Shown here piece after piece: positions 85 to 5,833 of a DNA stretch of 5,833 bases. This DNA is from a virus (Duplodnaviria > Heunggongvirae > Uroviricota > Caudoviricetes): the IMG/VR virus record IMGVR_UViG_2734482593_000003. One strand, given 5' to 3'. Position numbers and translations under genes: made by a program. Every line of letters begins with the position of its first letter. Positions within the stretch are counted from its first letter, which is position 1. A model generated the notes under the pieces. It was not told where the DNA came from, did not search any database, and saw only the letters and a list, made by a program, of their open reading frames with translations.

Positions 85-1241
85 TTAACTGATCGGCATT
101 ACACCACCGGGACGCGGATTCATATCTTCCAGGTCGCGGCAGTCATTGGAAGAGTAAATTCCCCAGTTGATCCCGGTGGCGTAGGCTTCAAAACGGGACT
201 TCATATCCCCGCGCAGTAACGCCCCGGCGTTAAATTTGGCGTAATAAACGCCCTGCTTACTTTTTCGTACCAGTCCGGTGTTGATCCGCTGTTCGATGCG
301 GGTCAGATACGGCACCAGTGAATAGTTGATAAATCCCAGCCCCAGCTCTTCGATATTGTTGAAGGTGGCGCGATCGGTGTTCTGCACCATGTGCAACGGC
401 ACCCGGAACAGACGACAGATTTCTTCCAGCTGAAACTTGCGGGTTTCCAGGAACTGACTGTCCTCGGCGTTCAGCGCCATCGACTTCCAGTCCAGCCCCA
501 TTTCCAGAATCATCGGGCGGTGAGCATTGCCAAGCCCCGTGTGACACTCCTCAAAATCTTTCTTCAGACGCTCGTAAGCATCCGGCGTGAGCTTTTGTTC
601 CGTACGCAACACACCGGATGTCACCGCACCATTACTAAACAACCTGGCACCGTGCTCCTCGGTTGCCGCTGCCAGTGAAATGGCCTCACGCGCATACGCA
701 ATGGGATTCAGCCCGACAAGTCCATCCAGCGTCAGGGTGCGCACATGCCAGATTTCATTCTGGGTCAACACATCCACGGAACCATCCGGAAACGTCACCT
801 GATAAACCGGCTGCCACTGGCTGTTCAGCTTCGGTTCCACACAGCCCGGATCTATCGGAAGAAGCTCCACCACTTCTCCCAGTGCCTTTACCTTGTAGGC
901 GTAAAAATTCCCCCGTAGACACAGGCAGACAATAACCAGCTCCCAGAATTCCTGCGGTGTCATGTAGCCATTAGGTTTTGCCGAAACCAACTTATGCAGT
1001 CGTTCATCCACCGCCCGTGTTTTCAGGGTACCGCTGATTTTGTAGAGACTGCAGGGCAGCATACCAACAGACTCTGCCAGCACCCTGACGCAAGAATAGA
1101 CCGCCGTCAGGCGCATGGCCCGCTGGCTACTGATCCGCTTTCCGGTATAGGTGTCGTATGACAGCCCGATAGCATCAGCAGTTCTGCTGGCGTGGTCACC
1201 GGCACATCGCTTTTTCGTTGAAATAATCCCGAAAAGAACAC
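85..1241 (-). CDS. Phage portal protein (HK97 family); reading frame apparently interrupted by a 1-nt frameshift near 1164-1168 (possible pseudogene or sequencing error)
   Basis: The 85..1332 ORF contains the portal motif (AMRLTAVYSCVRVLAESVGMLPCSLYK) and ends at TAA 87..85. That frame has no ATG/GTG/TTG between the upstream small ORF stop (1241) and Met73 (ATG 1116..1114); its only upstream start is TTG 1332, with no SD, inside the small ORF. A different frame has GTG 1241..1239 with GGAGG 6 nt upstream, encoding MFFSGLFQRKSDVPVTTPAELLMLSG... with good codon usage, and stops at TGA 1109..1107. Codon quality switches between the two frames around the GGG run (plus-strand CCC 1165-1167). Confidence 0.8.
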
Positions 1242-1423
1242 TATTTACCTCCGCCGACAGACTGCCGTGTACGGTCGAGATATCGCGCCACCAGCCACGA
1301 CCAGAACAGGCACAGCGCCCCGGCAACAACAAAACCCGCCGGGGGATAAATCAGCCAGGCACCATACGCCAGCAAAAGCGCACCCAGCACGCCCACCAGA
1401 GGCGCGAGAATCAGCATGATCAT
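1241..1423 (-). CDS. Small hydrophobic membrane protein (60 aa, two predicted TM helices), function unknown
   Basis: ATG 1423..1421 lies 5 nt after GAGGT and directly after the terL stop (TAA 1437..1435). Codons are E. coli-typical (CTG/GCG/GGT rich). Sequence [60 protein letters not shown] has two hydrophobic segments and a basic C-terminus. Its TAG stop overlaps the portal GTG (TAGTG). Confidence 0.6.
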
Positions 1424-1434
1424 AATTACCTCAG

Positions 1435-3168
1435 TTAAAGCGAGCGGATCCCGTAGGACTCAATGTGGTCAGACAGCGTGTCTTCTTTCTCGTACAGCAT
1501 GGCTCTGCCAACCGCCATAATCAGCGCAACTGCACCATCGATTTTGTTTTCCGCCTGCTCTTTGACGGGTTTCACCACATCATCGTTACCCGGCATGTTT
1601 TTGCCGACCACGTTGCCGATACACCAGGTCATGATGGGATTGCCGTCATGATGAAAACGTCCCGATTCAATCGCTGCTTCCAGCTCTTTCATCGGATCGG
1701 ACATATTGGTGAAGTTCTGGACGATAGTGACGGGATTCAGGTCTTCATCAGCAAGGTCATGTGACAACCCGGTCGCCCCGAAGGGGTCGATGGGTGACTC
1801 ACTGACCGGGCTGATTTTGTTCGCCGCTTTGGCCTCCTCGAGGATGTAGCGATAATCCACCTCCGCACCATCGGTAACGGTCAGAACGCCCATTTCCACC
1901 CATTTCTGAAAGCGTTCGGCTGTCCGTCGATCTTCATTTTTCTCGACGCTGTACACCGTGTCATACGGTACCCAGAAACGCGGGGCCACACTGTAGTAAT
2001 GCGTTTTACCGTCAATCTCGCGGGTATAAAGTCGCGCCATGCTGTTCATATCCAGCTTACGCGCCAGGTCAAAGGCCAGAATGCACGGCTGCCCCTCGAA
2101 CTGCTCAAGGGTCAGTGATTTATCCTCGCAGCTCTGCCAGCTCACCAAGTTGAAATACGCCGAACGCGCCGACACCCAGATATTGAGGTGTTTTGTTTTA
2201 AAGACGTTTGCCAGACGGGCGTTATTTTTCGCACGCTGCTGCTGACTTAACAAAAATTCGCGATAAACCGACACGCCAATATTTGGATTGGCTTTTTCCA
2301 GCACCTGCGGGCCGGTCCAGTCGTCACCTTCATCAACGGTATAGATGATCCCGAACAGTTCATCGTTAGGCACCGAGCCGTTGAGCATCTCGATGACTTC
2401 CCGCCGCTTGTCGTAGCACGGCCCCTCAATGTTGTACCCGGCGGTGGTGATGGCCCACATCAGTGGCTGACGTCGCGCCCCCATCCCGGTAAGCATTGTG
2501 GTATAAAGCGCATCGGTGGCATGCTCGTGATATTCATCAACCACGGCACAGTGGGGTGATGAACCATCACCTGGGTTGCCGATCAGCGGTTCAAACCGCG
2601 CGCCATCCTCCGGACGGTTCATGTTTGAGGCGTTAACCTCAATCCCGAACGCTTCCGTCAGCATGGGTGTGCGTTTACACATCAGTCGCGCCGGGCGAAA
2701 GACTTCCCACGCCTGTTTCTCTGTCGTGGCACCGGAATACACTTCCGCGCCAAACTCGTTATCACAGGCAAAACAATACAGGGCAACACCGGCAGAGATT
2801 GCTGATTTGCCGTTCTTACGGGGGATTTCGGTGTACACCTCCCGGAAGCGGCGCAACCGGGTGCCTTTATTGACCCAGCCAAACGCACAGCAGATCACAA
2901 ATAGCTGCCACGGCTCCAGCGTGATGGGCATCCGTTTGAATGCCCACTCCCCCTTGGTGTGCGGCAACAGCTGAATAAATTTCGCGGCCCGTTCAGCCAG
3001 GTCCTTGTCGAAGCGGTAACGAAACGACTTACTTTTTTCCGCCATCAGGTCATCAAGATGGCGCTGGCAGGCCTGAATCACAAACTGGCAGGCAACAATC
3101 TTTCCGCGCACGACATCCCGGGCATACTGATTTGCAGCATTTACGTTGGGGTAAGATTTCCGGCTCAT
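1435..3168 (-). CDS. terL: Phage terminase large subunit (577 aa)
   Basis: Long ORF with ATG start 3168..3166 in an ATGA overlap with the upstream terS stop. Walker A-like PRKNGKS near the N-terminus, acidic motifs (VVDEYHE) and a C-terminal nuclease-like region. Sits between terS and portal as in HK97-like head modules. Assigned from recalled family features. Confidence 0.95.
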
Positions 3169-3659
3169 GATTCGATAATTTTCAGAAACGGGTTAGTGGC
3201 TTTCTTCTGCCCCGCCAGGCCAATCAGACGCTGGCGGCTGCTGGGGTCGAGTCCGAGCATTGCCCCCGTGCTGCTCATCTCGGACTCCTGTTCTTTTTTG
3301 GCGGTCAGCTCCGGATTTTTGACCCTGCCGCCCATTGCACCGGTGATGGTGTTGCCCTGTATGGCAATATTTTTCACGGCACGTCGCCAGAACTCATAGG
3401 CCACGCACCACCGCTCAAGTACCGCCAGGTCAGTCACGCACAGCAGGCCCTGACCGCAGAGTTCTTTGGTTGTCAGTTGCCACATGATCGTGGCGAGAGG
3501 GAGATCTTCTTCAGCGAACCACTCTGGTGGCTCAACACCTTTGATGGGCGTAAAAACAGGTTCATCTTTGTTCAGGGCTCGCTTGCCGGGGTTTCCGGCC
3601 AGCGCCTTGCGCGCCGTTGGCTTGGGGCGACGCCCGGAACGCCCCGCCGTTCCAGCCAT
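3165..3659 (-). CDS. terS: Phage terminase small subunit, P27 family (164 aa)
   Basis: N-terminus [27 protein letters not shown] is characteristic of P27-family small terminase subunits. I chose ATG 3659..3657, which has AGGAG 8 nt upstream, over the GTG at 3668 used by the ORF track. Stop TGA 3167..3165 overlaps the terL ATG. Confidence 0.85.
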
Positions 3660-3780
3660 ATGCGGCACTCCTGGTTAAATTTCATTTTTCGCGGGTATAA
3701 AAAAACGATGGGGCGGGCAGTCCGGAAGACGTCAGGTCACAGGGATTTGCCCCGCCCCTCCCTACAAGTGAGAATAATTA
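3660..3780. other. Putative cos / packaging-recognition region between the HNH and terS genes
   Basis: 121-bp intergenic region in the position where HK97-like phages carry cos (HNH gene - cos - terS). Contains a perfect 8-bp GC inverted repeat GGGGCGGG (3710-3717) / CCCGCCCC (3751-3758) separated by 33 bp, flanked by A/T-rich tracts. Assignment is by position and composition only. Confidence 0.4.
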
Positions 3781-4131
3781 TCACCGGATTCGTTCGCGCG
3801 CTGTTTTCGCTTTATGGCAGGGCCAGCACAGACTCTGCAGGTTGCTGTCTGCGTCTGTTCCGCCATGCGCTTTCGGGATGATGTGGTCGACGGTTTTCGC
3901 CTCGCTCACCACACCGACACGCAGACACAACTGACACAGACCTTTATCGCGCTTCAGAATACGGGCACGAATCACCGTCCATTTTGAGCCATAGCCACGC
4001 TGGTGGCGGCTCAGTCCGCGCTGGTGCTGCACCCAGCCTTCACCGCGATGTTTATCGCAGTAACCCGAACTGTCTGTGGTTGTACCTGCACATCCACGCT
4101 TACGGCAGGCACGTGGGATTAGTGATGGCAT
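3781..4131 (-). CDS. HNH endonuclease, phage packaging-associated (116 aa)
   Basis: ATG 4131..4129 with GAGGT 7 nt upstream. Cys-rich zinc-finger-like N-terminus (CRKRGCAG...C) and HNH motif DHIIPKAHGGTDADSNLQSLCWPCH. Located directly upstream of terS, as HK97 gp74. Confidence 0.9.
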   Translation of the reverse strand: MPSLIPRACRKRGCAGTTTDSSGYCDKHRGEGWVQHQRGLSRHQRGYGSKWTVIRARILKRDKGLCQLCLRVGVVSEAKTVDHIIPKAHGGTDADSNLQSLCWPCHKAKTARERIR

Positions 4132-4173
4132 AAATACCTCATACCCTGCGAAATGTTTACCACGATAAAAAGG

Positions 4174-4521
4174 CTACTTAATGCACTGAGTGCGGATATA
4201 CTCCTGTGCCCCTTCCAGTTGCATCTGCATCGTCATCAGCCGCTCTCTGAGGGTGAAATAATCCCGTTCAGCGGTGTCTGCCAGTCGGGGGCTGGTTGCA
4301 TTATCCACGCCGGAGGCGGTGGTGGCTTCACGCACTGACTGACAGACTGCTTTGATGTGCAACCGACGACGACCAGCGGCAACATCAGCGCGCAGAGTTT
4401 CATTTTCAGCTTTCGCAACTTTGTAGGTAATGGCGTTATCACGGTAATGATTAACAGCCCATGACAGGCAGACGATGATGCAGATAACCAGAGCGGAGAT
4501 AATCGCGGTGACTCTGCTCAT
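4174..4521 (-). CDS. Rz: Rz i-spanin (inner-membrane spanin subunit), shortened variant (115 aa)
   Basis: From ATG 4521..4519, which overlaps the R stop as ATGA, the product [34 protein letters not shown]... matches lambda Rz as I recall it through residue 34, then resumes at AKAEN...[25 protein letters not shown]. About 39 residues of the periplasmic coiled coil are absent relative to the 153-aa lambda Rz. The ORF track starts 4 codons earlier at GTG 4533. Confidence 0.85.
4236..4403 (-). CDS. Rz1: Rz1 o-spanin (outer-membrane lipoprotein subunit), embedded in the +1 frame of Rz
   Basis: Near-identical to lambda Rz1 as recalled: lipobox LVVVGC followed by [43 protein letters not shown] 4403..4401 is taken as the start; alternative starts are TTG 4418 (the position aligning to lambda Met1) or GTG 4442 (ORF track). 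Confidence 0.8.
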
Positions 4522-5015
4522 TGCTGCCCCCACAAACAGACTTCACGCTCAATCTCACGACGGGTCATCAGCCCTTTCCATTGCTTACCGCCAGCATATG
4601 TCCAGCGACGTAGCTGGTCACATGCGCCTTTGATATCGCCCTGGTTTATTTTGCGAAGAAGCGTCGATGTTCTGAAATTGCCAGCGCCCACGTTGTAAAC
4701 GAACGAGTAAAGAGCGCCGCGCGTTGTTTCCGGTATATCGACTTTGATGTACGGGTTAATTTGTCTGGCGACAGTGGCAAGGTCTTTATTCAGGAGGGCT
4801 TTGCATTCTGCTTCGGTATACGTTTTACCGAGCATGATGTCTTTTCCGGTGTGTCCGTGACATACAGTCCATACACCAATGATATCTTTGTATGGTATGT
4901 AGCTGACACCTTCCAGACCATCGTTACCACCTGGGCCAGTGATTAACACAGATGCTATAGCAACAGCCCCACCACCAATAGCAGCTGCAACAGCCTTGCG
5001 TAATGATGGCGACAT
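4518..5015 (-). CDS. R: SAR endolysin (phage 21 R-type lysozyme, 165 aa)
   Basis: Near-identical to the phage 21 endolysin as recalled. Gly/Ala-rich N-terminal signal-arrest-release segment ([24 protein letters not shown]), followed by catalytic Glu/Asp/Thr spacing (GLEGVSY...[12 protein letters not shown]). ATG 5015..5013 overlaps the S stop as TAATG. Confidence 0.95.
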
Positions 5016-5230
5016 TATTCACCTCTCGCAGCCTTACGCTTGTCTTCTCTTATTTTGAAATACAGATTTGTCAGATAAGTCAGAAGCCCCAGAAGCAGAC
5101 TTCCCAGCACACCAATCGCAGCCCACTGTGATGGACTGACCTGATCCAACCACTGCAAAAACCAGTAGCCGGCACTGCCGGCGGAGGTGCCGTAGGCAAT
5201 GCCTGTTGATATTTTTTCCATCTGATACAT
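5015..5230 (-). CDS. S: Pinholin, phage 21 S-type (S21/EssD family), dual-start (71 and 68 aa forms)
   Basis: [71 protein letters not shown]: two TM helices and a basic C-terminus, matching S21/EssD as recalled. Two in-frame ATGs at 5230 and 5221 (Met1 and Met4) give the dual-start motif. G-rich SD-like sequence lies upstream. Confidence 0.95.
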
Positions 5231-5261
5231 ATCCCGCCCCCCGACAGACCTGTGCTATCGG

Positions 5262-5296
5262 AAAGAAAAAAGGCCATCAGCAAAACTCTGATGGCC
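5262..5296 (-). terminator. Rho-independent terminator just upstream of the lysis cassette (candidate late-operon terminator tR')
   Basis: Perfect 9-bp stem GGCCATCAG (5272-5280) / CTGATGGCC (5288-5296) with a 7-nt loop. On the minus-strand RNA it is followed by UUUUUUCUUUC (plus 5271-5261). It lies 32 bp upstream of the S start codon. Confidence 0.6.
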
Positions 5297-5833
5297 TGAA
5301 TCACCTTTACCAATATTGTATGAAAAAACACGCACGACTAATTGACAATAATTTTCATTTCCATTAAAAAAGATCGCGTAGCATTCTTAATTCATGAGGA
5401 ACTTTACCCGCCAGCAATCTGAGTAGCGAAAGCTGTTCATCCCCAATGTTTTTGCTGGCGGGTCCTTTTTTCTACGGTCCTCCTCCCCGGAGGGGGGCAT
5501 TTCATTATTTTTCTAATCGTTACTGGTGAGAAGGCGGAAGAAAAAGCCAGTTCTTCGCCCCTAAATAACAGCATGATTCCAGTCCATGCAAAATCTGATT
5601 TCCAGCTCACACATACCGAGCGCTGTACAAAAAACCGCCAGCCAAGGCAGTTAAGAGTGTGTTCCCGGGGTTTGCTTAGAATATTTTGTAAGTTGTCCGA
5701 AGAGATATTTACAACACCAGAATGATGCATTATCAGTCCCCTGCCAGAGGTTCACTACGTAACCTGACCGACAATGAAGTGGCACACTGAATTTGGCCAC
5801 CTGAACAGAGGTGATATGCTCACCTCAGAACAA

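Follow-up and report, generated by a model that had tools for sequence, protein, structure and literature searches.

The HNH-terS spacer of a Caudoviricetes sequence is very probably a cos site of the SfV/SfI/phiP27 type, already known from relatives, with a G-run box at a fixed distance from the cut

Where would the DNA of this phage be cut for packaging, and what part, if any, does the G/C-rich inverted repeat between its HNH endonuclease gene and its small terminase gene (terS) play in the cut? The original prediction had placed a cos site in this intergenic spacer. We analysed the spacer in the context of the window, i.e. the whole stretch of 5,833 nt from IMG/VR record IMGVR_UViG_2734482593_000003, in which all genes lie on the minus strand in the Pfam-confirmed order holin, endolysin, Rz, HNH, terS, terL, portal (Table 1). 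The terS start was taken to be the ATG at 3659, as annotated in the SfV, SfI and SfII records (the list of open reading frames reached up to a GTG at 3668). The spacer is flanked by the Pfam families PF01844 (HNH) and PF05119 (P27-family TerS), and annotated relatives have the same layout.

Table 1. Features of the window, from the lysis genes to the portal gene, with positions in window coordinates
Feature	Position	Strand	Details
P21-type holin	5230..5015	-	Pfam PF04971
Lysozyme (endolysin)	5015..4518	-	Pfam PF00959
Rz	4533..4174	-	Pfam PF03245
HNH endonuclease	3781..4131	-	116 aa; Pfam PF01844, E=1.6e-16
HNH-terS spacer	3660-3780		121 bp; between HNH stop codon (3783..3781) and terS ATG (3659)
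G-run box	3744..3762	-	GGGAGGGGCGGGGCAAATC; holds the HNH-proximal repeat arm (3751-3758); in register in 68 loci
24-bp spacer	3720..3743	-	CCTGTGACCTGACGTCTTCCGGAC; ends in conserved GGAC; sequence variable, length fixed
cosN, 10-nt cohesive end	3710..3719	-	TGCCCGCCCC (plus strand GGGGCGGGCA); identical to the SfI-mapped end
Left-end segment	3675..3709	-	T7 tract (3705..3699) and predicted TerS site ACCCGCGAAAAATGAAATTTAA (3696..3675, +14..+35); co-variation with TerS type, HK97 analogy
terS, small terminase, P27 family	3165..3659	-	164 aa; Pfam PF05119 (Terminase_4), E=3.7e-20
terL, large terminase	1435..3168	-	577 aa; Pfam TerL_ATPase and TerL_nuclease
Portal gene (start codon putative)	85..1332	-	Pfam PF04860, E=3.3e-107

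Judged by its sequence and that of its relatives, the spacer is very probably the cos site of a temperate phage of the SfV/SfI/phiP27 type, present here in joined (prophage or circular) form. When SfI virion DNA was sequenced by run-off from its two ends, a 10-nt gap was left as compared to the prophage, 5'-TGCCCGCCCC-3' (PMC3636060), and this mapped end is found unchanged in the window, where it consists of the terS-proximal arm of the inverted repeat plus 2 nt. Packaging of SfI by a cos mechanism is the conclusion of its authors (PMC3636060), and the cos site is identical in SfI, SfII, SfIV and SfV (PMC3851460). All four phages have the same 10-nt end in the same place after the HNH gene, their DNA downstream of the cut through terS is 97-98.5% identical to that of the window (97.4-98.5% for the terS-end DNA of the SfII, SfIV, SfI and SfV records), and their G-run box equals that of the window except for one base, T to G at 3750. 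In phiP27, a feature annotated as 'cos-site' at the homologous position between the HNH gene and terS (NC_003356, misc_feature 21806-21815) reads CGCCCGCCCC, one base off the cohesive end of the window; phiP27 also has the same box, the 24-bp spacing and the GGAC edge, but its TerS is only 48% identical to the TerS of the window, and the DNA right of the cut differs accordingly. Because the cohesive end is identical to an experimentally mapped end in SfI and the site is annotated in phiP27, the prediction of a cos site between the HNH gene and terS was right yet not new: this cos site is already known from the literature and from GenBank annotation.

The boundaries of the phage records can be read in the same coordinates. 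In a megablast search of positions 3300-4200 against phage records, the matches break off inside the spacer at record ends, with record starts at window position 3726 (SfV and SfIV) and 3709 (SfI). The SfV and SfI records have terS first and the HNH gene last; the SfI record terminates in ...GGACTGCCCGCCCC, i.e. with the cohesive end; and for SfIV the terS match is at the record start, the record having been linearised from terS to the cos site (PMC3851460). These boundaries in SfV, SfI and SfIV bear out the further claim that the lysis and HNH genes on one side and the packaging genes on the other belong to opposite ends of the virion DNA. The virion ends and the prophage gene map of the window would thereby be fixed (terS first, HNH last), which adds no new biology. 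We note that the SfV and SfIV record starts lie 7 nt left of the SfI-mapped nick, so that these record ends are not physical ends; since the SfV cos was merely termed 'postulated' in the SfI paper (PMC3636060), the SfV/SfIV record start is probably an arbitrary linearisation point.

Headful (pac) packaging, with a spacer that has no role in cutting, would be an extremely improbable explanation of this locus. Nothing specific speaks for it, although Sf6 and SfX, other Shigella serotype-converting phages, are of the pac type (PMC3636060). Termini are defined in SfI, whose terS end is 98.3% identical to the window in DNA and whose spacer downstream of the cut is the same (PMC3636060); moreover, the TerL of the window is homologous to the TerL of HK97, which is of the cos type, and the order HNH-terS-terL-portal is the arrangement linked to cos cleavage (PMC9410871).

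The HNH protein resembles that of phiP27 (99% identity to L34, as compared to about 78% to SfV orf53) and terS and terL are of the SfII/SfIV type, so that the window comes from a recombinant (mosaic) prophage with a junction at or near cos. Exactly this spacer is found in five IMG/VR contigs (the L020 group), and in complete E. coli genomes the matches are mosaic only, none of them spanning the window in a single block above about 93% identity. It is unlikely, if conceivable, that a genuine cos site has been left inert in a defective prophage that makes no particles: just 5.8 kb are visible, and the best match among complete E. coli genomes extends over 86% of the window, with 92.7% identity, but the holin, endolysin, Rz, HNH, terS and terL open reading frames are all full-length with strong Pfam matches, the portal open reading frame is open throughout the part that lies in the window, and many IMG/VR contigs carry a terS and a cos identical to those of the window.

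The parallel with HK97 that had been drawn from the gene order is upheld by homology. HK97 has the same order as the window (HNH, cos, terS, terL, portal) with cos in a like position; its gp74 is homologous to the HNH protein of the window (BLASTP, 34% identity, E=2e-10), and its gp2 is homologous to the TerL (26% identity over 522 aligned positions, E=8e-31, with the same Pfam domains). The two cos regions are alike in three respects: a 10-nt G+C-rich end comes after GAC, a box made up of a G-run and TCAAATC lies 24 bp upstream, and about 15-30 bp into the left end a CCCG step leads into an A-tract. They are unlike in the TerS, which in HK97 belongs to an unrelated sequence family, in the distance between the HNH gene and the box (about 260 bp after gp74 in HK97), and in the sequence of the cohesive end. 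A comparison of the end with those of HK97 and relatives, as the original prediction had suggested, thus gives identity in SfI, one changed base in phiP27 and a different end, CGCCGCCAAA, in HK97. As for polarity, the SfI run-off reads left a gap and not an overlap, from which recessed 5' ends, i.e. 3' overhangs, are inferred, and the cohesive end of the window is probably 3'-protruding as well, as in HK97 with its 10-nt 3' overhangs (PMC9410871, PMC11331095). In one of these papers the Discussion has ends of 10 nt in lambda and 12 nt in HK97, whereas the Fig. 1 legend gives 10 nt for HK97 (PMC9410871).

A loose likeness to the left end of lambda cos had been suggested too, and it stands as far as composition goes. 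The minus strand does contain the A/T tracts in question (TTTTTTTATAC, 3705..3695, and GAAAAATGAAATTT, 3690..3677), the nick site is G+C-rich in both cases, and the tripartite logic of lambda cos (cosQ-cosN-cosB, i.e. upstream element, nick site and TerS-binding region) is plausible for the window. Lambda, however, has a 5'-protruding 12-nt end, GGGCGGCGACCT, and uses the Nu1/gpA terminase together with IHF, without an HNH protein. The end in the window is 10 nt long, of another sequence and probably 3'-protruding, the TerS is of the P27 family (PF05119, Terminase_4) and not of the Nu1 type, and the TerL carries the Pfam domains TerL_ATPase and TerL_nuclease; the likeness to lambda is superficial.

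The 8-bp G/C inverted repeat is indeed present in the spacer, with arms GGGGCGGG (3710-3717) and CCCGCCCC (3751-3758) that are 100% complementary and 33 nt apart. Among dinucleotide-preserving shuffles of the spacer (n=5000), 362 (7%) contain at least one inverted repeat of 8 perfectly matched base pairs and a 3-60 nt loop; one whose arms are all G/C occurs in 10 (0.2%). As such the repeat is modestly beyond chance, and the non-randomness lies in the separate conservation of each arm and not in the pairing. That the repeat itself is functional, either as a symmetric protein-binding site or as a cruciform or hairpin recognised by terminase, would agree with the rarity of perfect all-G/C-arm repeats in shuffled spacers and with the retention of both arms among close relatives, but it appears very unlikely once more relatives are considered. 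Arm variation was read in 80 IMG/VR contigs with 99-100% identical TerS: GGGGGAGG stands beside an unchanged CCCGCCCC in two contigs (L026 and L074), and CCCGCCTC beside an unchanged GGGGCGGG in L066. The latter combination also occurs in L117. There is no covariation in either case, and changes in a single arm are tolerated in nature. In 66 distinct HNH-selected cos regions, perfect complementarity of box and cosN reaches 8 bp only four times (the mode of the longest match is 5 bp), and HK97, which pairs GGGGGGGGG with CGCCGCCAAA, is alike in spacing but not in pairing. In Firmicute relatives a C-run replaces the G-run at the equivalent place, which removes the complementarity. The paired inverted repeat was therefore rejected as a functional unit, there being neither covariation nor compensating changes in the relatives; the arms vary independently, and the repeat does not hold up as a conserved symmetric element.

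The same sequence can be read as RNA. On the minus strand, the G/C stem of 8-10 bp is followed 4 nt later by TTTTTTT, and the predicted RNA fold pairs the two arms, which is what an intrinsic transcription terminator closing the lysis/HNH transcript might look like. We consider this reading highly improbable: the loop is 33 nt as compared to 3-8 nt for an intrinsic terminator, a consensus scan of 3400-4300 gives no terminator, the folding energy is ordinary (z=-0.92, with 34 of 200 shuffles folding at least equally well), and relatives do not conserve the stem. The intrinsic terminator was rejected on the consensus scan and the unremarkable fold. In lambdoid phages, moreover, late transcription has to continue into terS. 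No Rfam match was found at gathering thresholds across the whole window.

The HNH-proximal arm lies within the G-run box, and the conservation of this box was assessed in loci selected by their HNH protein, a choice that avoids selecting on DNA. The sample comprises 80 loci from species-representative genomes with HNH proteins of 67-94% identity, and a cos-like site follows the HNH gene in 68 of them. Anchored at the cut, these 68 loci align without gaps, so that the box is always at -44..-25. Information content is high at the box, at GGAC (-4..-1) and at the first seven bases of the cohesive end; within the 24-bp spacer, it is high only at -4..-1. The spacer from box to cut is 24 bp long in the window, SfI, phiP27 and HK97 (in HK97, AGGGGGGGGATCAAATC, 24 bp, and then GAC directly before the cohesive end), and its sequence varies among close relatives. 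We note that the G-run box (GGGGAGGGGCGGGTCAAATC) keeps its distance of 24 bp to the cohesive end, on the upstream side, in every sampled Enterobacterales HNH-linked cos region and in HK97.

More distant loci came from a pattern scan of viral contigs for the box, in which the query itself introduces a bias and some matches are due to chance (in about 25 loci no HNH or TerL gene is nearby); it returned boxes directly after genes for HNH proteins only 29-50% identical to that of the window, with unrelated DNA downstream, and one of its sequences matches Oscillospiraceae and Streptococcus phages. Given this bias, our claims on the conservation of the box rest on the HNH-selected samples. For an unbiased check, we ranked phages by tblastn with the HNH protein, picked some spread down the list, and in twelve of these inspected the sequence that follows the HNH gene; the distance from run to cut was measured in the ten of these twelve with a placeable cut or record end, with HK97 and SfI as references. 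A G-run box is found 23-24 bp before the record end or AC/CG cut (the slash marks the nick, here and below) in phiE125, phiL7, YeP2, Vibrio K254, Paenibacillus Wanderer and WBeta, and a C-run occupies the equivalent place in phi105, phi12 and J-1. Stretches with at least 8/10 G or C that end 28-38 nt before the cut are found in 10 of the 12 diverse HNH-cos phages so measured, i.e. the ten together with HK97 and SfI (background: 0.004 per position), and phages of Burkholderia, Xanthomonas, Vibrio, Bacillus, Paenibacillus and Staphylococcus have a G- or C-run at the box position. The element may be common to HNH-dependent cos phages of Proteobacteria (SfV, phiP27, HK97, phiE125, phiL7, Vibrio K254) and Firmicutes (phi105, phi12, WBeta, Paenibacillus Wanderer), and perhaps to those of Actinobacteria.

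The most economical guess is that the box is a conserved upstream element of cos, with a cosQ-like role or a role in positioning HNH or TerL. No description of it was found in the searchable literature (by sequence searches and searches for cosQ or G-rich together with HNH; the SfV genome paper and Kala et al. 2014 lie outside this scope), and literature searches with the cohesive-end and box sequences gave unrelated matches only. According to a review, herpesvirus pac signals likewise contain blocks rich in G and in T and are cleaved a set distance away, which is a resemblance only (PMC13595911). Two other readings of the box were rejected by eye: TCAAATC as an IHF site does not agree with WATCAANNNNTTR, and for a G-quadruplex the box has only three G-tracts. 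The conservation of the box and the match of the cut to an HNH nicking site are the only parts that might repay more work. For annotators, the wider comparison offers a simple rule by which the cohesive ends of prophages with an HNH gene beside terS can be predicted from sequence.

The match to the nicking site concerns the left edge of the cohesive end. In the HNH-selected loci, this edge, AC/YG, is the most conserved part of cosN; the window has AC/TG. HNH nickases encoded next to cos in phages gamma, phi105, BsuW23 and Lrm1 nick CG/GT, i.e. AC/CG on the other strand, and AC/TG is a strong off-target site of a fusion nickase with the HNH domain of phage gamma (PMC3592412); the nicking sites were not linked to cos by Xu & Gupta (PMC3592412). 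According to tblastn, the HNH protein of the window is 37-40% identical to the WBeta and phi105 enzymes, and set against the AC/CG site of the nickases N.phiGamma and N.phi105, its own nicking specificity for AC/TG is a prediction. Since the conserved AC/YG edge matches the published nicking site of HNH nickases encoded next to cos, the HNH protein probably cuts one strand and TerL the other, and the 37-40% identity leads us to propose two nicks, one by each enzyme. HK97 gp74 stimulates cos cleavage (PMC11331095, PMC9410871), and for this protein strand cutting and mere stimulation of TerL have both been left open as options (PMC11331095), our proposal corresponding to the first.

Two observations on other ends may be added here. 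The left edge of the cohesive end is AC/CG in nearly all HNH-cos phages examined (right ends L293, L295-L297, L299 and L300). For phi105 (L295), the annotated end is the 7-nt GCGCTCC, whereas the N.phi105 site RAC/CR predicts the 8-nt CGCGCTCC, a discrepancy of one base.

On the other side of the cut, the DNA follows the TerS protein. Three types of DNA right of the cut can be told apart in 71 loci, in step with the type of TerS: type I, to which the window belongs, goes with TerS proteins 48-100% identical to that of the window, and types II and III go with TerS proteins 24-34% identical to it, whereas all three have in common the box and the initial bases of the cohesive end. Such a pattern suggests that the HNH side and the terS side have been exchanged as modules, with cos as the joint. 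The co-variation of the DNA right of the cut with TerS suggests a TerS site there, like that of HK97. The TerS of HK97 binds CTAACCCGATTTTTT at +15..+29 relative to the cut; it recognises the C:G pair of position 21 by a base-specific contact, and binding depends on the A-tract next to it (PMC11331095). The published numbering of the HK97 site agrees with the sequence of the HK97 record. The layout of a GC step followed by an A-tract, and its position, match between HK97 and the window, which suggests a predicted TerS-binding site at about 3675-3699. No sequence similarity of the TerS of the window to HK97 gp1 could be detected (BLASTP E=6.9; gp1 has no Pfam match, as compared to PF05119 for the window), and the HK97 binding mode is thus transferred by analogy only.

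Put together, the cos of the window would work as follows. Read along the minus strand, the elements would be met in the order box (3762..3744), 24-bp spacer (3743..3720), cohesive end (3719..3710), T7, ACCCGCG with an A/T tract (3696..3675), ribosome-binding site and terS ATG (3659). TerS would bind the A-tract site just inside the left end, and the 3'-protruding ends would result from two nicks by TerL and the HNH protein at a distance of 10 nt. The plus-strand nick at CA/GT, between 3719 and 3720, is probably made by the HNH protein, and that in the minus strand, between 3710 and 3709, probably by TerL. Packaging would proceed from the terS end and stop at the next cos, where the box, 25-44 bp from the right virion end, would be the last conserved element met before the cut. 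We tentatively propose, with somewhat less than even confidence, that the run of about 10-13 bp of G (of C in several Firmicute phages) plus T(C/T)AAA(T/A)C, about 24 bp upstream of the AC/YG nick (about 30 bp from the run end), is a positioning or termination signal read by its shape, i.e. an analogue of cosQ, for a complex of HNH and TerL in which HNH would make the AC/YG nick and TerL the other. For an HK97-type machine, the analysis thus offers three hypotheses: on the strand that the HNH protein cuts, on the place where a P27-family TerS binds, and on the G/C-run as a part of cos.

Some minor observations concern the genes of the window. Between the terL stop and the portal gene there is an open reading frame of 60 aa (1241-1423, minus strand) that is strongly hydrophobic, with two membrane spans predicted by eye; the start of the longest portal open reading frame overlaps with it. 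Inside Rz and out of frame with it, an open reading frame of 68 aa (4236-4442, minus strand) fits an Rz1-type spanin by its position and its proline-rich sequence, as in the SfV annotation. About 40 nt upstream of the holin start, a terminator-like hairpin (5271-5297, minus strand) has a 10-bp stem and a 7-nt loop followed by TTTTTTCTTTC, and may be a late-operon terminator that is read through by a Q antiterminator; 5 terminator-like sites were observed in 5200-5833, vs 0.5 expected. Residues 1-39 of the HNH protein (window 4015-4131, minus strand) contain an N-terminal cluster of Cys and His (C9, C14, C25 and H28), the HNH motif being C-terminal. The cluster is near-invariant in the aligned relatives that have this N-terminal region, whereas HK97 gp74 begins after it and lacks it; the cluster may form a zinc ribbon that serves as a DNA-binding module.
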